From: an uncultured Eubacteriales bacterium
GTDB taxonomy: Bacteria; Bacillota; JAAYKD01
Direction of reading: 5' to 3'
NCBI GenBank assembly: GCA_964484445.1
Contig: CAZAFY010000001.1
Coordinates: 1 to 29,305, forward strand
DNA: 29,305 bases
The position numbers were made by a program, and so were the translations under genes. The notes beneath the pieces are model-generated. The model was not told the DNA's origin. It was given only the letters and a program-made list of their open reading frames with translations, and did no database searches. Shown here piece after piece: positions 6,582-21,417 of this stretch; the first letter of the stretch is position 1, and the number at the start of each line of letters is the position of its first letter.

Positions 6582-6595
6582 TCCGTCAGAATGAT

Positions 6596-6613
6596 TGGTG
6601 AAAAAAAGCACAA
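6596..6613. promoter_or_regulatory. Rex operator candidate 3 (downstream of the -10)
   Basis: TGGTGAAAAAAAGCACAA, 11/14 match, followed by a further TTCACAA half-site. Confidence 0.5.
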
Positions 6614-6642
6614 TTTTGATTCACAAAAGGAGGATATTTTCA

Positions 6643-7125
6643 ATGGCTTGTTCTAGCCTTCAGTCCAAATTTCAAGAATTGGATCATTATATTGACAACT
6701 TATCCATTTCCGATAAAGGCTCTGCCTTGATTCCGGTTCTTCACAAAGCACAAACGATTTTCGGTTATCTCCCCCAAGATGTCCAGGCTCATATTGCGGA
6801 ACGTTTAGACGTTTCTACTGCAAAAGTCTATGGTGTGGTCAGCTTTTATACCTTCTTTACCATGGAACCCCGCGGGAAATTCAACATCAGCGTCTGCTTG
6901 GGAACTGCTTGCTTTGTTGGTGGAGCCGATGCCGTGCTGAAAGAATTTGAAAAAGTTCTTCAGATCAAAAGTGGTGAAACCACACCGGATTTCAAATTTT
7001 CCATCATCCCGGTTCGCTGCGTAGGCGCTTGCAGCTTAGCTCCGATCGTTATGATCAACGACAAAGTGTATCCCAGGGTGAAGGTCAGCGAAGTAGCTCA
7101 TATTCTTGCAGAGTATGAAGAGTAG
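6643..7125 (+). CDS. hydC: NAD-linked [FeFe]-hydrogenase gamma subunit (NuoE-like, 2Fe-2S)
   Basis: LIPVLHKAQ..FGYLP, VYGVVSFY, CLGTAC...CVGAC. Start ATG 6643 after AGGAGG. Confidence 0.92.
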   Translation: MACSSLQSKFQELDHYIDNLSISDKGSALIPVLHKAQTIFGYLPQDVQAHIAERLDVSTAKVYGVVSFYTFFTMEPRGKFNISVCLGTACFVGGADAVLKEFEKVLQIKSGETTPDFKFSIIPVRCVGACSLAPIVMINDKVYPRVKVSEVAHILAEYEE

Positions 7126-7136
7126 GAGGAAGTAGC

Positions 7137-9053
7137 ATGGAACGAATATTAACTTTTGATCAATTAAAACAATTCTATGAGTCCGTTAGATACCAAACCA
7201 ATATGCGCTTACATCCTCTGAATCAAGCACCTGATTTTGTGCAATTACCGGAAGCGTATCGTAAAGAAACTAAAATGCGTCATGTTATGGTCTGTGCCGA
7301 TACCGGCTGTGCTGCTTCACATTCCGTTGGCATAGCCGATAAACTCGAGCAAGCAATTGCACGCTACGGCTTACAAGATCAAGTGATTGTGGTAAAAACC
7401 GGTTGTTTTGGTTTGTGTTCCCAAGGCCCGATCGCGGTCATTCATCCTGAACGGATCATGTACACACAACTTAAAGCCGAACATGTCGAAGAAATCGTGC
7501 GTGATCATTTGCGCGACGGTCATTACGTTGAACACCTCTTATTGGGTGCCCGCGAGGGTGCTCCGACTACACAATACGATAACGTTGATTTTTTCAGAAA
7601 CCAAGTCCGCATTGCCACCCGAAACTGCGGTGTAATCAATCCCGCTAGTCTGGAAGAATATATTTCACAAAAAGGCTACTTAGCCTTAGGAAAATGCATT
7701 CACGAAATGACACCCGACCAAGTCGTGGAAACCGTGAAACAATCCGGTTTGCGCGGTCGAGGCGGGGCAGGATTTCCCACCGGTCTAAAATGGGGCTTTA
7801 CTGCCATTGAAAAAGAAGATCAAAAGTATGTCTGCTGTAACGCCGACGAAGGCGACCCCGGTGCATTTATGGATCGTTCTGTCCTTGAAGGGGATCCCCA
7901 TTCTGTATTAGAAGCCATGGCTATTGCTGGTTATGCAATTGGTGCAAACATGGGTTTCATCTATATTCGTGCGGAATACCCCAGTGCAATCCGTCGCCTG
8001 CTCTCCTCTATTGAACAAGCCAAAGCAGCCGGCTTATTGGGAGCCAATATCATGGGAAGTACCTTCTCTTTTGATATTGAACTCCGATTAGGTGCCGGAG
8101 CCTTTGTTTGCGGTGAGGAAACCGCACTAATCGCTTCTGTGGAAGGAAATCGAGGCGAGCCTCGCAATAAACCACCTTACCCTGCTTCCAAAGGAATCTA
8201 CGGCAAACCCACTGTCATCAATAATGTTGAAACCTTAGCAAATATTTGCCCGATCATCCTTAACGGACCCGAATGGTTCCGTTCAATTGGCACCGAAAGA
8301 AGTCCCGGTACCAAGGTTTTTGCCCTGGCCGGAAAAGTAAACAACGTTGGGCTCATTGAGGTTCCCATGGGTACTACCCTACGGGAAATTATATATGAGA
8401 TCGGCGGGGGTATCGTTGACAACAAACAACTTAAGGCAGTGCAAACAGGCGGTCCCTCCGGTGGTTGCATTCCAGCTCGCTACCTCGATACCCCAATCGA
8501 TTACGAATCCCTCCAGGTCATAGGTACCATGATGGGTTCCGGTGGTATGATCGTTTTAGATGAAACCGCTTGTATGGTCAATATTGCCAAGTTTTACTTG
8601 GAGTTCACAGTAGAAGAATCCTGTGGCAAATGCACTCCCTGTCGCTATGGCAACCACTATCTCCTCGATATCATGAACAAAATCACCAGCGGTAAAGGGG
8701 AACGTGAGGATTTAGATCGCCTTTTCAATTTGGGCGAAACCATTAAGCAAGCTTCTCTTTGTGGCTTAGGACAATCTTCACCGAATCCGGTTTTAAGTAC
8801 AATGCGTTATTTCCGCGATGAGTACTTAGCCCATATCGACGAAAAACGTTGTCCTGCCGGTGTTTGCAGCGATTTACTTCAATACCATATCGTGCCGGAG
8901 CTCTGTATCGGTTGTACGATTTGTGCTAAGAACTGCCCTGTGCAATGCATCAGCGGAAGCCTTCGCGAACCTCATGTGATCAATCAAGAAGCTTGCATCA
9001 AATGCGGCGTCTGCTTTACCAAATGCCCTAAGAAGGCAATCATCAGAAAGTAG
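7137..9053 (+). CDS. hydB: NAD-linked [FeFe]-hydrogenase beta subunit (NuoF-like, FMN/NADH)
   Basis: N-terminal thioredoxin-like 2Fe-2S (CADTGC, GCFGLC), GLRGRGGAGFPTG, NADEGDPGAFMDR, GAGAFVCGEET, ESCGKCTPCR, C-terminal 2x[4Fe-4S]. Confidence 0.94.
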   Translation: MERILTFDQLKQFYESVRYQTNMRLHPLNQAPDFVQLPEAYRKETKMRHVMVCADTGCAASHSVGIADKLEQAIARYGLQDQVIVVKTGCFGLCSQGPIAVIHPERIMYTQLKAEHVEEIVRDHLRDGHYVEHLLLGAREGAPTTQYDNVDFFRNQVRIATRNCGVINPASLEEYISQKGYLALGKCIHEMTPDQVVETVKQSGLRGRGGAGFPTGLKWGFTAIEKEDQKYVCCNADEGDPGAFMDRSVLEGDPHSVLEAMAIAGYAIGANMGFIYIRAEYPSAIRRLLSSIEQAKAAGLLGANIMGSTFSFDIELRLGAGAFVCGEETALIASVEGNRGEPRNKPPYPASKGIYGKPTVINNVETLANICPIILNGPEWFRSIGTERSPGTKVFALAGKVNNVGLIEVPMGTTLREIIYEIGGGIVDNKQLKAVQTGGPSGGCIPARYLDTPIDYESLQVIGTMMGSGGMIVLDETACMVNIAKFYLEFTVEESCGKCTPCRYGNHYLLDIMNKITSGKGEREDLDRLFNLGETIKQASLCGLGQSSPNPVLSTMRYFRDEYLAHIDEKRCPAGVCSDLLQYHIVPELCIGCTICAKNCPVQCISGSLREPHVINQEACIKCGVCFTKCPKKAIIRK

Positions 9054-9066
9054 GAGGTTTCACCCT

Positions 9067-10809
9067 ATGTCAACGGTCAATCTGAGTATCAATGGCTTGC
9101 CTGTTTCTGTGGAAGCCGGCACCACCATTTTGGATGCAGCAAAAACAGTGGGTATCAAGATTCCCTCCTTATGCTATCTGCATTTACCCGATGTCGATGT
9201 TGTTTGTAAAAGTTCTTCCTGTCGTGTATGTTTGGTTGAAATCGAAGGACGCCGCAATTTAGCACCTTCTTGCTCGACCACAGTCGTAGAAGGCATGATC
9301 GTCAAAGCCGATACTGCTCGTGCTGTAGATGCTCGAAAAACCATGTTAGAACTGATGCTTTCGAATCATCCTCACAATTGTTTATTCTGCAAACGGCGCG
9401 AATCCTGTGAACTCAAGGCGTTATCGGCAGAAATGGGAATCGATGAACTTCCCTTTCAGGCTCCGGTGCCGGAAGCAGATCTCGACACCTCGAACTTCTC
9501 CATTATTCGAGACACCTCAAAATGTATTTTATGCCGTCGTTGTGAGACTGTTTGTACCGAAGTTCAAACGATGGGCATTTACTCGGGCGTAAACCGAGGG
9601 TTCGATACTCGTATCGACACAGCGTTCCATACTCCTATGATGAGTACGGCTTGCACCTTCTGTGGACAATGCGTAGCTATTTGCCCCACAGCAGCTCTGA
9701 CCGAAGTCGACAATACTCCTGCCGTCTTCAAAGCTTTACGTGATCCAAAGAAAACAGTCATCGTTCAGACCGCTCCTGCGGTTCGTGTGGCTTTGGGTGA
9801 AGAATTGGGCTACCCAGTCGGCACCAATGTAACCGGAAAAATGGTCACCGCTTTGCGACGTTTAGGCTTTGACAAAGTTGTTGACACCGACTTTACTGCC
9901 GACTTGACGATTATTGAAGAAGCTACTGAACTGATTCATCGCATCCAGAACAACGGCGTATTACCCATGATGACCAGCTGTTGTCCGGCTTGGATCAAAT
10001 TTTTAGAACATAAATTCCCGCATCTATTACCCCATTTATCGACTTGCAAATCTCCTCATGAGATGTTGGGAGCAGTAATCAAGGCGTTCTATGCTGAAAA
10101 GTTAAACGTCAAACTTGATGATCTCATCGTAGTCTCTGTCATGCCTTGTTTGGCGAAGAAATACGAGAACAATCGTCCCGAGCTAAGCGATGGAAAATAT
10201 CCCGATGTCGACATCGTAATTTCTACCCGCGAATTGGGAGCCATGATCAAACATTCCGGCCTACAATTCAAGAGTTTGCCGGACGCTGATTTCGACCGAC
10301 CCTTTGGCGAAAGTTCCGGTGCCTCCGTCATCTTTGGTACGACCGGTGGCGTAATGGAAGCTGCTTTACGTACTGCTTATGAAACCCTCACCGGCAGAAC
10401 ATTGGATCATGTTGAATTCGAAGAAGTGCGTGGCTTTGAAGGGATCCGATCCGGTAATGTTATGATCGGTGATTTAGAAGTTAAAGTAGCCATTGCTCAT
10501 ACCCTCAGAAATGCTCGTAAGCTCATGGAAGAGGTCGAAAATGGCACTGCTGATTATCATTTCATTGAAGTTATGGCTTGTCCGGGTGGATGCATTGGTG
10601 GAGGTGGTCAACCTTATCATCATGGAGAAATGGACACCTTGCGCAAACGGGCTGCTGCTCTCTACAGCGCAGATGAAGCCAAAGTCATCCGTCGTTCTCA
10701 TGAGAATCCCGATATCACGCGGTTGTATCAAGACTTCCTAGGAGAACCGAATGGACATCTAGCTCACGAATTGTTACATACCCACTACGTCAAAAGAAGT
10801 AAACACTAA
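9067..10809 (+). CDS. hydA: [FeFe]-hydrogenase catalytic alpha subunit (group A, multimeric)
   Basis: H-cluster motifs TSCCPAW, MPCLAKKYE, EVMACPGGCIGGGGQP; N-terminal 2Fe-2S, His-ligated 4Fe-4S (HPHNCLFC) and 2x[4Fe-4S]. Confidence 0.96.
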   Translation: MSTVNLSINGLPVSVEAGTTILDAAKTVGIKIPSLCYLHLPDVDVVCKSSSCRVCLVEIEGRRNLAPSCSTTVVEGMIVKADTARAVDARKTMLELMLSNHPHNCLFCKRRESCELKALSAEMGIDELPFQAPVPEADLDTSNFSIIRDTSKCILCRRCETVCTEVQTMGIYSGVNRGFDTRIDTAFHTPMMSTACTFCGQCVAICPTAALTEVDNTPAVFKALRDPKKTVIVQTAPAVRVALGEELGYPVGTNVTGKMVTALRRLGFDKVVDTDFTADLTIIEEATELIHRIQNNGVLPMMTSCCPAWIKFLEHKFPHLLPHLSTCKSPHEMLGAVIKAFYAEKLNVKLDDLIVVSVMPCLAKKYENNRPELSDGKYPDVDIVISTRELGAMIKHSGLQFKSLPDADFDRPFGESSGASVIFGTTGGVMEAALRTAYETLTGRTLDHVEFEEVRGFEGIRSGNVMIGDLEVKVAIAHTLRNARKLMEEVENGTADYHFIEVMACPGGCIGGGGQPYHHGEMDTLRKRAAALYSADEAKVIRRSHENPDITRLYQDFLGEPNGHLAHELLHTHYVKRSKH

Positions 10810-10814
10810 AACAA

Positions 10815-10842
10815 ACACCGTCGAGTGAAAACTCGACGGTGT
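10815..10842. terminator. Probable bidirectional terminator
   Basis: Perfect 12-bp stem ACACCGTCGAGT-GAAA-ACTCGACGGTGT between convergent genes. Confidence 0.85.
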
Positions 10843-10847
10843 ATTTC

Positions 10848-11594
10848 TTATCCACGTATTGCTAAAAACAAAGTTGAGGGGGAATCCTCTTGCCACGTCG
10901 TCCCTTCTACACTACCATAGAAATCTACTACCACAAATCCAGCGTCTTGCAACATTTTCTGAATTTGCAGTCGTCGTATTGGATAAACCACGATTTCTTG
11001 CTTGGTCAACTCCTTTGCATCAATGCGCAATAAGGATAATTCAGTCTGCATGCTGAGATACCCATCATTACGTAAGCGGAGTTTGCGTTGCACTCGAATA
11101 CCGGTATCTTCATTGACCAAATCCGGTAACTCACGAACTTTATAATCTAAGAGCATATCATAGTTGAACAGTTGCATAACCAACCGCCCGCCTTTATTCA
11201 GCAAGGTAGCAGCCTGCTTGAAAAAAGCTTGATATTCACTTTCGTCTTTTAAAACGGAGGATGCGTTGTTTAGACAAAGGATCACATGATAACTACTGGG
11301 CTTACCGGGCAACTCCAATAACGGTGCCGACTCAAATTGTAAGGCTCTTGGTACTTTATCTTTCATGGAATACGCTTTCGCGTTCCTGAGTAAAGCTTGC
11401 TCGCTTTCAACTGCGGTTACGACCGAGCCCGATACTGCTAAAGCATGCGCTAACTCTCCCCCACCGCATGCGGCATCCAAAACATGGGCAGATGAAAGAT
11501 TGCCTATTTCATTGGTCAGAAAACTAACCATTCCCAAGGAAGGTTGCACCAAAGTAGCATAATAATCGATGAATCCATACATAATATCGGACAT
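10848..11594 (-). CDS. Class I SAM-dependent methyltransferase
   Basis: Motif I VLDAACGGGELA, acidic end of beta2 (AVES), YHVILCL, LNKGGRLVMQ; GGAGG RBS; 18 nt after the LysR stop. Confidence 0.85.
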   Translation of the reverse strand: MSDIMYGFIDYYATLVQPSLGMVSFLTNEIGNLSSAHVLDAACGGGELAHALAVSGSVVTAVESEQALLRNAKAYSMKDKVPRALQFESAPLLELPGKPSSYHVILCLNNASSVLKDESEYQAFFKQAATLLNKGGRLVMQLFNYDMLLDYKVRELPDLVNEDTGIRVQRKLRLRNDGYLSMQTELSLLRIDAKELTKQEIVVYPIRRLQIQKMLQDAGFVVVDFYGSVEGTTWQEDSPSTLFLAIRG

Positions 11595-11612
11595 CTGTAT
11601 CCCTCCAATGGT

Positions 11613-12488
11613 TTACTGATTCTTTAGAATCTTCCTTGCCAAGGATAAGAATTCCTCCTTCAAGTAGAAAGAATTCTCTTTTCGGTAGATCAGTGAATTG
11701 CAACGGGCGGAGGGTAAGAATTTTTCTTGCTGAATGATGCGCAATCTCCCTCGCTCAATCGCTTGGCTGACAGCCCGTACCGGCAGTAGTGTATATCCTA
11801 ATCCGGCTGCTGCCATTTCACGAAGCGCTTCTATACTATCCATTTCCATAACGTTTTCCGGAACAAAACCGTGCTGAGCAAAAAATTGATCAATATAGGT
11901 GCGAAAGCCTGTTCCTCTGGCAAAGATCAACCAAGGGCCTAAGGCTAATTCCGCTAAACTGTGAGGATGCAGTTCCGGCGAAGCCACAATCGCCATGGTA
12001 TCATAAAAAAGCGGTTCTACCGTGAGTCGTGCGTGGATCACTTCTGAACTGACCAGACCAACATGAGCGGTTCCGTCTTCGACCATGCGCACTGTTTCTG
12101 TTGTTTTTCCGGAGTAAACCGTCAATTGTGCCTTTGGAAATTGTTTGCGATACATTGCCAAGACTCGTGGCAACAAATAGGTCATGGTCACGCTCCCGGC
12201 TACCACGACCAAGCGTCCTTGATAAGGGTCAATCGCCTGTGCAGCTTCCGCTTTCAATTCTTGAACTTGACTGACGATTCTTTGAGCACGTGGTAAGATC
12301 ATCTCTCCAAAGGGTGTAAGCTGAAGTTGCCTACCTTTTCTCACAAAAAGCTGCCCGCCCAGTTCTCCCTCTAATTGCTGGATTTGCTTACTGACAGCGG
12401 GTTGGCTGAAACCAAGTAAATCTCCGGTTCGTGTCATATTCAACGTTTCAGCAGTTCTGCAAAAAACCAAGAGTTGCTGTACTTCCAT
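11613..12488 (-). CDS. LysR-family transcriptional regulator
   Basis: HTH (SQPAVSKQIQQLEGELGGQLFVR..R...LTPFG) plus substrate-binding domain. Start ATG 12488 preferred. Confidence 0.93.
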   Translation of the reverse strand: MEVQQLLVFCRTAETLNMTRTGDLLGFSQPAVSKQIQQLEGELGGQLFVRKGRQLQLTPFGEMILPRAQRIVSQVQELKAEAAQAIDPYQGRLVVVAGSVTMTYLLPRVLAMYRKQFPKAQLTVYSGKTTETVRMVEDGTAHVGLVSSEVIHARLTVEPLFYDTMAIVASPELHPHSLAELALGPWLIFARGTGFRTYIDQFFAQHGFVPENVMEMDSIEALREMAAAGLGYTLLPVRAVSQAIERGRLRIIQQEKFLPSARCNSLIYRKENSFYLKEEFLSLARKILKNQ

Positions 12489-12619
12489 TACCACCACCCC
12501 TTTCAAGTATTCCTTATGGTTATGATTCAATAGAAGATTATCATTTCCCTGCTATGGCTTGGTTATTGTATAATCTTTTTGTTGGATATTTATCCCAAAG
12601 ATGGAAAGGCGTGATTTTT

Positions 12620-13891
12620 ATGTCAGTCAGAGCAATCGTTGGAGCACAATGGGGAGACGAGGGCAAGGGTAAAATTGTCGATCTTTTGGCACAAGAGGCC
12701 GATATCGTAGTTCGATTTCAGGGAGGGGCGAATGCGGGACACACCGTAGTCAATTCGTATGGCAAGTTTGCTTTACATCTGATTCCCTGTGGAATCTTTA
12801 ATCCCAAAGTCACCAACATTATTGGTACCGGTACCGTCGTAGACCCGGCTGGCTTAGTAACCGAAATTTCACAATTACATCAAGCCGGTATTTCTACAAA
12901 GCAGTTGAAGATATCAAATCGTGCTCATTTATCGATTCCTCTTTACGGTTATTTAGACCGTTTGTTGGAATTGGCCCGTGGTAACTCTGCTCAAGGATCC
13001 ACCCTAAGAGGGATCGCACCGGCATATGCTGCAAAAAGTTTACGGGTTGGCTTGCAAATGGGCAGCATGCTCAACCGAGAACGTTTTATGCAATCTCTGC
13101 GTGACATTTTGGTCAGTGGCAATCAACTGATTGAAGCGGTCTTCAAAGAGAAAGCAATCGACATTGATGCAACTTTAATTGAATTTGAAGAATACCTACG
13201 AGTCTTATCGCCGTATATCTGTGATACGCTTCCAATTTTACACCAAGCTGCCAAAGAAGATAAAAATATACTCTTGGAAGGTCAATTAGGGGTGATGCGC
13301 GATCTCGATTGGGGAATTTATCCTTATAGCACCTCTTCCAACCCCACTTCCGGTGGAGCTGCTTCCGGCAGCGGTTTACCTCCGCATCTAATCAGTAGAG
13401 TAACCGGTATAGTAAAGGCTTTCTCAACAGCCGTAGGCGCCGGCCCTTTCCCTACTGAACTCAAAGATGAAGTAGGTTCGTACTTACGCGACTTTGGCGA
13501 AGAATTTGGTGCCACAACCGGTAGACCACGGCGTTGCGGTTGGCTTGACTTAAATGCTCTCCGTTATGCTGCCCAACTCAATGGGTTCACCGATGTCGCT
13601 ATTACAAAATTAGATACTTTGGATCAATTAGAGCATCTCAAAGTTTGTACGCATTATCGACTCGATGGTCAAATCGTGGAAGGAATGCCCTTAGCAGAAG
13701 ACTTAGAACGTGTGGAACCGGTCTACGTTGAAATGCCCGGCTGGAACTGTTCTACCCAGCAAGTGAGAAGTTGGCAAGATCTACCCAAAGAAACCAAAGC
13801 CTATGTAGAATTGATCGAAGAAGCCTGTGGGGTCAAAGCCTCTTGGCTTTCGGTTGGTCCCTCGCGAGAAGCCACCTTCCGTCGTAGTTAA
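12620..13891 (+). CDS. purA: Adenylosuccinate synthetase family protein, divergent paralog
   Basis: GAQWGDEGKGK, GGANAGHT, EFGATTGRPRRCGWLD, TKLD, SVGP; but EGQLG replaces EGAQG and STAVG replaces STRVG. Start ATG 12620 (the ORF-track extension covers the promoter region). Family is certain, function is not. Confidence 0.85.
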   Translation: MSVRAIVGAQWGDEGKGKIVDLLAQEADIVVRFQGGANAGHTVVNSYGKFALHLIPCGIFNPKVTNIIGTGTVVDPAGLVTEISQLHQAGISTKQLKISNRAHLSIPLYGYLDRLLELARGNSAQGSTLRGIAPAYAAKSLRVGLQMGSMLNRERFMQSLRDILVSGNQLIEAVFKEKAIDIDATLIEFEEYLRVLSPYICDTLPILHQAAKEDKNILLEGQLGVMRDLDWGIYPYSTSSNPTSGGAASGSGLPPHLISRVTGIVKAFSTAVGAGPFPTELKDEVGSYLRDFGEEFGATTGRPRRCGWLDLNALRYAAQLNGFTDVAITKLDTLDQLEHLKVCTHYRLDGQIVEGMPLAEDLERVEPVYVEMPGWNCSTQQVRSWQDLPKETKAYVELIEEACGVKASWLSVGPSREATFRRS

Positions 13892-13900
13892 AAAAGAAGC

Positions 13901-13929
13901 TTGAATTTAGTTTCATTTCAAGGTATACT
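13901..13929 (+). promoter_or_regulatory. Sigma-A promoter candidate for the OsmC-like gene
   Basis: TTGAAT-17 nt-TATACT, 29 nt before ATG 13959. Confidence 0.7.
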
Positions 13930-13958
13930 TAAAGTATCAACTACAAGGAGGTTTTTCC

Positions 13959-14330
13959 ATGGCCTACATGTCTTTTTCTCTCACGCCACAAGGCACCTTG
14001 ATTCAAATGGAAGGCAAAGCCGACCAACTCGTCAACAAAGAAAACTTTGGCCCAACCGATCACTTCTTTGCCGGGATCGGCGCCTGAATGTATGCTGGAA
14101 TTGCGTCTTACGGACGTAAATTCGAGCTTCCGGTGGAAGCTATTACCATGACCCTAGATACTACAAAAAACGAAACCACTCGTTTGATCAACAAGATGGA
14201 TTTCCAAGTCAAATTCCCCGAAGGGTTCCCTCCTCAACATCTGCAATCGATCTTGAAAAACATGAACGCTTGTTATGTTAAAAAACATTTGTATGATCCT
14301 CCTGAAGTCACAGTGACGGTCATAGAATAA
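13959..14330 (+). CDS. OsmC/Ohr-family protein, probable selenoprotein (TGA 14085-14087 = Sec43; 123 aa)
   Basis: AAGGAGG RBS before ATG 13959; MAYMSF...FGPTDHFFAGIGA-[TGA]-MYAGI... continues in frame into ORF 14088-14330. The TGA occupies the first conserved OsmC Cys; the second Cys is in NACYVKKHL. Confidence 0.8.
14094..14141 (+). promoter_or_regulatory. Candidate SECIS hairpin(s) of the OsmC-like gene
   Basis: Hairpin GCT-G-GAATTGCGTC-TTACG-GACGTAAATTC-G-AGC (loop at +21 from UGA) and overlapping AGCTTCC-GGT-GGAAGCT (loop at +45). Folded by eye. Confidence 0.5.
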
Positions 14331-14339
14331 CAGATCAAT

Positions 14340-14393
14340 AAAAACCCCACCCTATACTTTTGAACGAATCAAGAGCATTGGGTGGGGTTTTTT
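14340..14393. terminator. Bidirectional terminator
   Basis: AAAAACCCCACCC...GGGTGGGGTTTTT with an inner CTTTTGA/TCAAGAG stem, between convergent genes. Confidence 0.8.
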
Positions 14394-15602: not shown

Positions 15603-17399
15603 TTAAACTTTTATAAAACAAACCGCAACACTGCCCGGACCGGAATGAATAGCAACCACCGAGGAGATTTCTGTGATAAATGCCGGTTCTTTCCCGATCT
15701 TGCTGCGTAAAAGATCTTTATATTCCAATGCCAATGCCAGATTATCCGCATGAACAATACAGTAATCTTCGATACCACCGCTTTGAAGTGCTTCATCCAC
15801 CAGTTTCATGATTCGAGAGGTGATCCCCTTTTGACTGAATGCAGCACCAAAGGCGATTCCTTTGCCGGCTTCATCAATCGACATGATCGGACGAACTCCT
15901 AACATATTCCCGATTTTGCCAACCGTATTGGGAACCCTTCCCCCCTTCGCTGCAAATTCCAGCGTATTCAAACAGACGTATATTTTGCTTTTGGCAATGC
16001 GTTCTTGAACAAGAGTTGCGATTTGATCATGGTCCAACCCCTGACTTCGCGCTTCCACAGCAGCTTTAACAATCAATCCTTGCGCACCGCTGTTGAGCAG
16101 ACTGTCAATGACTGTAATCCTCTTCCCCATTGCCTGTAACTGGTTCGCTTCTTTCTCCAAAGCTGCATGCGTACCGCTCATCTTGGAAGAAACCGTGATC
16201 ACAATCAGGCTCTCGAATTGATCTGCAGCCCATTGCAGATATTGGCTGATTCTTCCCGGTTCGGGTTGTGAACTGGTAGGGTGATGTGCGGTAGTTTTCA
16301 TGCGCTGGAAAAGCTGTTGTAAGCGAATGGTGGTTTTATCTAGATAAATCAGGTCGTCCAGCAACAACCCCAAAGGCAAAACCGGAATTTGTTGTGCCAA
16401 AACTAATTCACCGGAAAGATCAGCTATGGAATCCGTTAAAATCCCGATCGGTGATATTCTCTGATTGATGATTCGATTTTGCAGTTCCATATCATCAACA
16501 ATCTGATCAATGATCCTTCCCCATTTGCGCAATCTTTCCACAACCAATTCCGGTGTATTGGTATGGATATGAATTTTTAGTTTTCGTTCCATGGTTGTAA
16601 CAAGTAGGGAATCGCCAAATTCACGCAAATCAGCTTTGACCCGATCTACAAAGCCGGAGTCCGACATTCCTGTTTCAATCTCCACTGTTATGGTCGTGCA
16701 GTAACGAAACAAGATCTTTTCGACCTGATGATGATCAACATTTTCAACCACCAATTCGTCCTCTACCGGTTGGCTCACATGCAACGATTCACTGGCAAGA
16801 AAGCGATTGATCCCTTGAACGAAGAACAAGAAGCCTGCCGCACCAGAATCGACAACATTGTTCTTCCGTAATAATTCCAATTGCTCCTTGGTGTGCTCCA
16901 ACGACTGGGCTACGATTTGCTGGGAGTCCCGTAAAAATTCCAGGAACCCCTGATAATGCTGATGATTCTGAACCAGGAAAGTAGCCCAATCTTTGATGAC
17001 ACTGATGATCGTTCCCTCTACCGGTTGATCAATAGCTTGGTACATCCCTTTTACAGCTCGATTCGCAATTAAGGCAAAATCAGATAACCCTATTTTCTCA
17101 AAAGGTCCGGCTTCAACCGCCATGGCATTGACATAGGCAGCAAAAATGATCCCTGAATTTCCCCTAGCATTGGCCAAGCCGGTTTGCGAAATTTCATGCA
17201 GCATGCTATTAAAAGCCGTCTTGCGACTGGTTTTATCGACCATGGCCCGTAAAGTAACCACTAAATTGCTACCGGTATCGCCGTCGGCAACCGGAAAAAC
17301 ATTGATTGAATTCAAGTATTTACGATGCTCATGAATTTCTTCGGCCCCATATTTAAACCAACCGTATAAATCGGTTCTGGTAATAAATTGTCTGTTCAT
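15603..17399 (-). CDS. DAK2 (FakA-like) - DegV (FakB-like) fusion, putative fatty acid kinase
   Basis: NVFPVADGDTGSNL and ARGNSG (DAK2); YCT...HIHT middle domain; SSQP, SSKMSGT, GGR, HSGPG (DegV). Start ATG 17399 preferred. Confidence 0.88.
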   Translation of the reverse strand: MNRQFITRTDLYGWFKYGAEEIHEHRKYLNSINVFPVADGDTGSNLVVTLRAMVDKTSRKTAFNSMLHEISQTGLANARGNSGIIFAAYVNAMAVEAGPFEKIGLSDFALIANRAVKGMYQAIDQPVEGTIISVIKDWATFLVQNHQHYQGFLEFLRDSQQIVAQSLEHTKEQLELLRKNNVVDSGAAGFLFFVQGINRFLASESLHVSQPVEDELVVENVDHHQVEKILFRYCTTITVEIETGMSDSGFVDRVKADLREFGDSLLVTTMERKLKIHIHTNTPELVVERLRKWGRIIDQIVDDMELQNRIINQRISPIGILTDSIADLSGELVLAQQIPVLPLGLLLDDLIYLDKTTIRLQQLFQRMKTTAHHPTSSQPEPGRISQYLQWAADQFESLIVITVSSKMSGTHAALEKEANQLQAMGKRITVIDSLLNSGAQGLIVKAAVEARSQGLDHDQIATLVQERIAKSKIYVCLNTLEFAAKGGRVPNTVGKIGNMLGVRPIMSIDEAGKGIAFGAAFSQKGITSRIMKLVDEALQSGGIEDYCIVHADNLALALEYKDLLRSKIGKEPAFITEISSVVAIHSGPGSVAVCFIKV

Positions 17400-17576
17400 T
17401 TTACACCCCACAATGAAAATTTGTAACGATTTCTTAGTAGGAATAGTTCTCCATAGCAATTAAAATTCCTTTACCAAGGGAGAAACTTTAGAAAAAAACA
17501 ACTTGAAAAAATTGTTATTTTCTGGTATTCTCTATTTGTTCATTTTTTCGTTAACTTTGTACGAAAGGGGTACTGT

Positions 17577-20571: not shown

Positions 20572-21417
20572 TCAATAAAGGAAATTCACACTTAAGTCCA
20601 AAGCTTTAACACTGTGGGTCAGTGCTCCTATGGAGATCAGATCGACTCCGGTTTGCGCTACAGCTCGTAAGTCTTTTCTACCCATGTTTCCGGAAGCTTC
20701 TGTTAACGCCCTGCCCTTGATCCAGTCTACTGCCTCTGTCATTTGGTCCAAGCTCATATTATCGAGTAAAAGAATGTCCGCACCTGAATCAATCGCTTCT
20801 TTGACCTGTTCAAAGTTCTCTACTTCTACTTCGATTTTCATTGTGTGAGGACTCTTGATCCGTGCCGAAGTTACCGCTGCGGTGATCCCACCGGCTGCTC
20901 GGATGTGGTTATCTTTGATCAAAATGCCGTCAGCCAAATTAAACCGATGATTAAAACCTCCACCAATGCGCACCGCATATTTTTCAAAAAAGCGCAGACC
21001 CGGGGTTGTTTTTCGAGTATCGATGATTTTGCAGGGTAACCCTTCAATTTGCTTGACTGCAGATTTAGTGGCAGTTGCGACGCCCGACAATCTCTGCAAT
21101 AAGTTTAGGGCAACCCGTTCACCGGTCAGCAAACTACGAGCCGGTCCTTGCAATTCCGCCAAAACTTGTCCCGGTTCCACCGAAGCTCCTTCTTCAACCA
21201 AAAGCTTTACATTAATACTTTCATCGAGGAGGAAGAAAACACGTTTGAACAATGGAAGGCCGCACAAAACCCCTTCGTCTTTGGCTAACAGATGAGCCTG
21301 CACCCAACTGTCATCGGGAACTGTAGTGTTGGTAGTTAAGTCACCCTGGCCAATATCCTCTTGTAAAACTTGCCAGAGAAAGGTATCAATGAATCGATTC
21401 ATCTTTAATGGAGTCAT
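20572..21417 (-). CDS. nadC: Nicotinate-nucleotide pyrophosphorylase (quinolinate phosphoribosyltransferase)
   Basis: EDIG.GDLT, ERVALN, DTRKTTPG, HRFNL.DGILIKDNH, EVEV, LLDN, EASG. Confidence 0.97.
   Translation of the reverse strand: MTPLKMNRFIDTFLWQVLQEDIGQGDLTTNTTVPDDSWVQAHLLAKDEGVLCGLPLFKRVFFLLDESINVKLLVEEGASVEPGQVLAELQGPARSLLTGERVALNLLQRLSGVATATKSAVKQIEGLPCKIIDTRKTTPGLRFFEKYAVRIGGGFNHRFNLADGILIKDNHIRAAGGITAAVTSARIKSPHTMKIEVEVENFEQVKEAIDSGADILLLDNMSLDQMTEAVDWIKGRALTEASGNMGRKDLRAVAQTGVDLISIGALTHSVKALDLSVNFLY

Follow-up and report, generated by a model that had tools for sequence, protein, structure and literature searches.

In the 29,305-nucleotide stretch of DNA from an uncultured Eubacteriales bacterium analysed here (the window, taken at its full length), a short reading frame on the forward strand is interrupted by a single in-frame TGA, and the question raised by this locus is whether that TGA is a stop codon between two small peptides, a lesion in a decaying gene, or a codon read as selenocysteine (Sec, U) at the active site of a redox protein. 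The first-pass annotation had chosen the last of these readings, taking the gene at 13959-14330 for an OsmC/Ohr selenoprotein with Sec in place of the first catalytic Cys, and this choice is supported by a profile HMM match, by the occurrence of TGA in 14 of 14 loci, by the Cys found in the same column of homologues, by dN/dS ratios and by a second UGA-containing gene in the window. Judging from the sequence evidence set out below, we consider it very probable that the gene encodes a genuine selenoprotein of the OsmC superfamily.

Gene structure and annotation in public records

Located 3' of purA, the gene is monocistronic. A promoter scan placed a sigma-70-like promoter (TTGAAT, a spacer of 17 nt, TATACT) at 13901-13929 on the plus strand, and a ribosome-binding site, AAGGAGG, was read directly at 13945-13951 on the same strand, 7 nt 5' of the ATG at 13959. 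From this ATG run 42 sense codons ending in ...GPTDHFFAGIGA, followed by the TGA at 14085-14087, which is codon 43, and by 80 further in-frame codons that include the stretch NACYVKKHL and lead to a TAA at 14328-14330. Translated with U at codon 43, the coding sequence 13959-14330 (plus strand) thus comprises 123 codons and the TAA, and its assignment to a selenoprotein with an OsmC/Ohr-type redox fold draws on this translation, a Pfam match, a structural model and dN/dS. On re-reading, the promoter described in the first-pass annotation was found to be exact, as were its ribosome-binding site, start codon, codon counts on both sides of the TGA and NACYVKKHL motif. Alignments of the orthologous loci show that the promoter hexamers are kept as CTTGAA and TATA(C/A)T, and every orthologue has a purine-rich site of the (A)AGGAGG type 5' of its ATG, in slightly shifted alignment columns. 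Downstream of the gene, the region 14345-14393 on the plus strand contains a hairpin (CCCCACCC...GGGTGGGG) and, after it, a T-run, in the manner of a terminator; a consensus terminator scan missed this hairpin because of its long loop, and it was read from the sequence and folded directly.

In the mechanical list of open reading frames, the locus is represented solely by the 80-codon piece, which is started at the ATG directly 3' of the TGA. In the public records that we found (NCBI, JGI, ENA and Logan), the gene appears either as two pieces of 42 and 80 aa, each called "hypothetical protein", or with a Trp at the active site; these split or Trp-containing gene calls cover 14088-14330 of the window and 10001-10243 of the syntenic contig L001, and the name selenoprotein is never used for the clade in any of these records. 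JGI names the 80-aa fragment [quoted passage not shown] (YcaO), which is wrong and was probably carried over from the OsmC-YcaO fusions described by TIGR03549.

Conservation, selection and fold around codon 43

A word-index protein search returned only three close relatives: two 80-aa C-terminal fragments and one protein of 123 aa whose residue 43 is W, most likely through the use of genetic code 4 by the gene caller. The comparison was made at the level of DNA with 14 loci taken from public assemblies and one GTDB scan, and codon 43 is TGA in all of them, which was the codon that the first-pass annotation had proposed to inspect in orthologues. The 14 loci reduce to nine distinct sequences from at least four clades, with identities of 80-99% inside the window clade and of 36-52% between clades. 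When 1.84 billion representative proteins were searched exhaustively with HMMER, 101 matched, and in the alignment of the best ones the TGA column is occupied by Cys in full-length distant homologues, with the consensus LFLASxGTCxG. A Cys at this place had been expected in orthologues, and in the full-length distant homologues it is near-invariant. The second Cys is likewise near-invariant, being conserved in at least 90% of 30 homologues within the motif C-x-V-K-K-H-L. The residues after U read UMYA or UMFA in the window clade, UMAA in locus L008, ULLS in L010 and UMGA in L011, and the UxxT redox motif is absent from the window clade and from these three loci.

Both parts of the gene are under strong purifying selection. 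Nei-Gojobori estimates within the window clade put dN/dS at 0.02-0.09 both in codons 1-42 and in codons 63-123, where dS is close to saturation or past it, which bears out the suggestion that conservation should be sought on both sides of the TGA. Lesions other than the TGA were not seen, and these ratios give no sign of the relaxed selection that had been named as a mark of a pseudogene.

When U was replaced by C, as the first-pass annotation had recommended, the protein matched the Pfam OsmC profile (PF02566) with 31.3 bits at a cutoff of 27.5, residues 28-119 being aligned with profile positions 4-99/100. The match runs across the TGA and exceeds the cutoff, and the gene is therefore more than a chance reading frame. 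An AlphaFold model (pLDDT 88, pTM 0.80), for which 30 aligned homologues served as input, places residue 43 within a long helix formed by residues 32-54 and Cys105 just before a short helix at residues 106-110. In a Foldseek search of the PDB with this model, nearly all of the top 50 matches were OsmC/Ohr proteins, with probabilities of 0.95-1.0 and TM-scores of 0.5-0.67 at a sequence identity of only 9-19%, and the closest solved structures include the uncharacterised proteins 2pn2, 2onf and 1ml8. A profile of the homologues searched against the PDB also found OsmC entries, whose two active-site Cys residues align to column 43 and to Cys105. Thus, both active-site Cys positions of the OsmC/Ohr superfamily are kept, the first as U43 and the second as C105. 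The TGA at 14085-14087 (plus strand), read as Sec, would supply residue 43 at the alignment position of the first, peroxidatic Cys, on the combined evidence of the 14 loci, the distant homologues and the alignment with OsmC structures; the TGT at 14271-14273 (plus strand) encodes Cys105, the second or resolving Cys, in the motif C-Y-V-K-K-H-L, which aligns with the C-P-V of OsmC. Residues C105, V107, K108 and H110 are each conserved in at least 90% of the 30 homologues.

Probable selenocysteine decoding and RNA structure downstream of the UGA

TGA terminates four of the 27 other long reading frames in the window, one of which is nadC (20572-21417), whose 281-aa product is equal in length to its counterpart in L001. 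Because TGA is the ordinary stop of four window genes, the standard code applies, rather than code 4 or 25, and an altered genetic code was rejected on this ground. In the window and in eight related loci, ARAGORN reported no tRNA, and hence no tRNA-Sec; selA, selB and selD were found neither in the window nor among the genes tabulated for the fetched loci, which amount to about 200 kb.

A second candidate selenoprotein gene is encoded on the minus strand at 27176-26706. Of its 156 codons, number 44 is the U codon (TGA at 27047-27045), in the context NRGFI-U-PFC, and the gene was recognised as Prx-like (AhpC-TSA) from Pfam, NCBIfam and its relatives: it matches Pfam AhpC-TSA with 76 bits, and its best NCBIfam match is SelL-related redox protein with 72 bits, which is below the cutoff of 120. 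The database holds 1653 relatives of this protein, and most of those listed are C-terminal fragments of about 105 aa that begin with MAQLRQ, just after the U codon, the other listed ones being about 155 aa long with W, or rarely Cys, at the U position. The UxxC gene that the first-pass annotation had reported 13 kb away therefore exists, as a minus-strand Prx-like gene with U-P-F-C whose relatives show a Sec/Cys pattern. The minimum free energy of the 76 nt behind its UGA is not significant (z=+0.3), and by eye a possible SECIS hairpin, UGGCGC-AGUU-GCGUCA, can be seen that starts at a distance of 19 nt from the UGA. That one 29-kb window has two independent genes with UGA in a catalytic Cys column is a strong, though indirect, argument for a host that decodes Sec.

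A structured RNA element that the first-pass annotation did not mention lies directly behind the UGA of the OsmC-like gene. Within the window clade, third positions vary in 5 of the 16 degenerate codons among codons 44-60 versus 90 of 101 elsewhere in the gene (Fisher p=2e-6), and dS for codons 44-62 is only 0.17-0.52 while the flanks are saturated. The low-variation block folds into two hairpins, in which 96 of 96 pair cells are standard pairs in six sequences of the window clade, and the 60-nt fold has a z-score of -3.1. Hairpin 1 of this putative SECIS, at 14098-14123 (plus strand), starts 10 nt after the UGA and has a stem of 10 bp with one bulged A and the loop UUAYG. It is backed by complete pairing in all six sequences and by a compensatory pair: pair 22-30 occurs as U-A, G-C and U-G, and pair 14-39 as G-C and G-U, and in L002 and L007, which have the G-C form of pair 22-30, a Ser-to-Ala replacement is matched by a synonymous change in a Gly codon. 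When pairing partners were slid, pairing fell to 18-56%; the shuffle control is modest with only six sequences, since 28 of 500 shuffles reach the observed value. Hairpin 2, GCUUCC-GGU-GGAAGC at 14126-14140 (plus strand), is perfect, lies inside the frozen synonymous block and is invariant in the six distinct orthologues, so that the window clade offers no covariation by which to test it. A SECIS-like structure after the UGA is present and is under selection at the RNA level.

The divergent loci L008, L010 and L011 have a hairpin of 7-8 bp with an unrelated stem sequence at the same codons, and its loop, GGU(A), lies 18-19 nt after the UGA. Single-sequence folding z-scores in these clades are weak (-0.6 to -1.7), and the argument for a SECIS there is one of position and loop motif only, with hairpins offset by 1-3 nt between clades and only four independent clades to compare. 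SelB contacts a G-U dinucleotide of the SECIS loop in E. coli and Moorella, and the usual search model for bacterial SECIS elements expects the apical loop 16-37 nt after the UGA. Like the elements of E. coli fdhF and Moorella fdhA and the bSECISearch consensus, the structure found here is a stem-loop inside the coding region; its stem begins 10-13 nt behind the UGA, and its apical loop, which opens at a distance of 18-20 nt, includes a G, in three clades as part of GGU(A). It differs from them in the window clade, where the UUAYG loop of hairpin 1 has G at its last position only and no GU dinucleotide, and where a second, invariant hairpin carries the GGU loop that sister clades have on their first hairpin. 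This GGU loop begins 44 nt after the UGA and is too far away for the 16-37 nt of the usual model. Rfam SECIS families gave no match at gathering thresholds anywhere in the window, and around the UGA (14060-14180) Rfam gave only chance matches, with E-values up to 10. We speculate, as a rather improbable extension of these observations, that the window clade may use a two-hairpin SECIS: in a Bacillota-specific OsmC subfamily, of which every member found so far has Sec and which annotation pipelines and the OsmC_like_Se model have missed, the GGU loop contacted by SelB would have moved from the first hairpin to the invariant second one at +44 nt, past the usual bacterial distance.

The decoding steps themselves are established for bacteria in general (PMC9312934), and in their use at this locus, as we infer it, SelB carrying Sec-tRNA(Sec) would be recruited by the stem-loop element (14098-14140) that closely follows the UGA within the reading frame. 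Other fates of the UGA have to be weighed against Sec insertion. The lack of Sec machinery in the window and the fetched loci, together with the W of some public gene calls, which most likely stems from genetic code 4, would be compatible with a UGA read by a near-cognate tRNA for Trp or Cys, or with local recoding that needs no Sec machinery. However, TGA is the normal stop of four window genes, Trp would abolish the chemistry in a column that holds the catalytic Cys in homologues, a conserved structured element right after a UGA is a signature of SelB-dependent decoding, and the window contains another gene whose UGA aligns with Cys. We regard such readthrough as very unlikely. Slightly less probable still is a split gene, in which ribosomes would stop at the UGA and restart at the adjacent AUG (UGAAUG) to give peptides of 42 and 80 aa that assemble. 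It would account for the ATG directly 3' of the TGA in eight of the nine distinct sequences and for the separate listing of the two reading frames in databases, but the assembled protein would lack its catalytic residue, since that very codon would be the stop; moreover, L010 has CTC after the TGA, no Shine-Dalgarno sequence precedes the ATG at 14088, the break would fall midway in the continuous helix 32-54 of the model, and the synonymous sites are frozen after the UGA and not before the AUG. Termination and reinitiation can be regarded as effectively excluded by the lost catalytic codon, the CTC of L010, the missing Shine-Dalgarno sequence and the broken helix.

The least probable reading, which we put close to exclusion, is that an OsmC-like gene has been inactivated by a nonsense mutation from TGY to TGA. 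A single in-frame stop in an otherwise recognisable domain is what such a pseudogene would present, but the same TGA recurs in 14 loci whose clades are only 36-52% identical, dN/dS is 0.02-0.09 on both sides with dS saturated, and the gene has no other lesions and has kept its promoter, ribosome-binding site and terminator. The conserved TGA and the purifying selection on both sides of it effectively exclude this explanation. Insertion of Sec at codon 43 is accordingly the reading that we retain, with the strength given at the outset.

Function, relatives and host

The selenoprotein that we propose would be the 123-residue product of the monocistronic gene, a member of the OsmC/Ohr superfamily in which codon 43 is decoded as Sec. 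Sec43 would sit in the central helix at the place of the peroxidatic Cys of OsmC/Ohr, and Cys105 would act as the resolving residue. By analogy with Ohr/OsmC chemistry, the selenolate of Sec43 may attack a hydroperoxide and be converted to a selenenic acid, which would react with Cys105 to form a selenenylsulfide, and the latter may be reduced by a dithiol reductant of the lipoyl protein or thioredoxin type. Given the superfamily to which the protein belongs, a hydroperoxide-reductase function seems fairly likely. This proposal is weakened by the fact that the subfamily has no characterised member and has a K-K-H motif of its own, that no recognisable catalytic Arg was seen in it, and that, among named relatives, it stands closest to the OsmC domain found in OsmC/YcaO fusions.

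The same features would suit a genuine selenoprotein that is not a hydroperoxide reductase and in which Sec43 and Cys105 would perform other redox chemistry, such as thiol-disulfide exchange, persulfide exchange or a task comparable to that of the YcaO-fused OsmC domain. In NCBIfam, the N-terminal OsmC domain of TIGR03549 (OsmC/YcaO fusion) is the best match for the query and for 28 of the 30 homologues; the best homologue reaches an E-value of 7e-28, and the query scores 22 bits over profile positions 36-128 of 723, against a cutoff of 900, so that a full-length match including the YcaO domain was not obtained. The near-invariant Lys and His of the subfamily motif C-x-V-K-K-H-L differ from the C-P-V of solved OsmC proteins. 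By sequence, a conserved Arg corresponding to the catalytic Arg of Ohr/OsmC was not seen in the N-terminal part of the nine distinct sequences, where Lys20, conserved in all nine, is the only basic candidate seen, and three of the closest solved structures (2pn2, 2onf, 1ml8) are themselves uncharacterised. On the other hand, both active-site Cys columns are kept, the residue nine positions before U is acidic (D or E) in eight of the nine distinct sequences, the exception being a Q in the single divergent clade of L010, and the gene neighbourhood of this anaerobe contains a rubrerythrin gene (in a syntenic locus) and the gene of the Prx-like candidate selenoprotein. To our knowledge, all biochemically characterised members of the OsmC superfamily are peroxidases, which also counts against another function. 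We consider a role outside peroxide reduction unlikely, and the hydroperoxide-reductase reading is the one that we prefer.

Researchers described an "OsmC-like protein" selenoprotein family (COG1765/PF02566) with the motif UxxT from the Sargasso Sea in 2005 (PMC1088965, Zhang, Fomenko & Gladyshev), and this UxxT family is the only OsmC entry in reviews of 2022 and 2026 (PMC9312934, PMC13188914), the latter of which counts more than 110 prokaryotic selenoprotein families (PMC13188914). The family, now modelled as NF041052 (OsmC_like_Se), shares with the window protein the status of a bacterial PF02566 selenoprotein whose UGA is followed at once by a SECIS-like stem-loop; the Sec presumably stands in the same active-site column. 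In contrast to it, the window protein has U-M-Y-A instead of UxxT and the subfamily motif C-Y-V-K-K-H-L, its 123 aa compare with a model of 144 positions, and its clade belongs to anaerobic Bacillota of bioreactor and digester metagenomes, whereas NF041052 comes from marine surface bacteria. The query scores 19.4 bits against the NF041052 cutoff of 95, and the homologues reach E=2.6e-14 at best. As far as sequence can tell, the window protein resembles the OsmC_like_Se family in kind and is not a member of it as now defined.

With Ohr/OsmC proteins of solved structure (PDB 1vla, 1qwi/1nye, 1zb9 and 6ecy), the window protein shares the fold, two Cys columns about 62 residues apart, the first within the long central helix and the second where a short helix begins, and the acidic residue nine positions before the first Cys. 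It differs from these proteins in having Sec for the peroxidatic Cys, an N-terminus shorter by 15-20 residues and no obvious catalytic Arg, at an identity of 9-19%. The likeness to the OsmC/YcaO fusions (TIGR03549) consists in their N-terminal OsmC domain, the best NCBIfam match at 22 bits, but the window protein stands alone with 123 aa and no YcaO domain, and remains far under the 900-bit cutoff. The clade is an unannotated, new Sec-containing subfamily of a superfamily that was already known to include selenoproteins.

All carriers are uncultured Bacillota, namely Eubacteriales, "Firmicutes bacterium" and Symbiobacteriaceae metagenome-assembled genomes, and one record comes from a bioreactor metagenome. 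The gene follows a HydABC-like [FeFe] hydrogenase (NuoE-like, NuoF-like, HydA), a methyltransferase, a LysR regulator and purA, an order seen in the window (6595-13891) and in L001, L011, L017 and L018, the last of which lies on a 2.9-Mb contig (ena:ERZ21831265:ctg82124c). From the hydrogenase to the OsmC-Sec gene, the window clade agrees in this order with a clade only about 50% identical to it. In the same neighbourhood, the mechanical purA reading frame (12431-13891) begins with GTG at 12431 and has 486 aa, compared with 422-426 aa in orthologues, and its 5' part runs into the divergent LysR gene; translation probably begins about 60 codons further on, at the ATG of MSVRAIVGAQWGDEGKGK. Further along, a gene for a 618-aa fusion of Dak2/FakA-like and DegV parts (15603-17459, minus strand) occurs in the window and in L016 and is absent at the matching place in the syntenic L001, where DUF1295 is directly followed by an ABC transporter.

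Since selenoproteins of the OsmC superfamily have been known since 2005, a further one would not surprise a specialist. Its recognition would nevertheless correct public records in which the gene is split, given a Trp or misnamed, and would add a second Sec-containing OsmC subfamily to the catalogue of prokaryotic selenoproteins. The paired hairpins would offer a small and well-conserved case for studying the flexibility of SelB-SECIS geometry in Gram-positive bacteria, and the contribution of selenium to this peroxidase chemistry could naturally be tested on an Ohr/OsmC active site that carries Sec. For the organisms themselves, the gene would mark these uncultured, hydrogen-metabolising digester anaerobes as selenium users.
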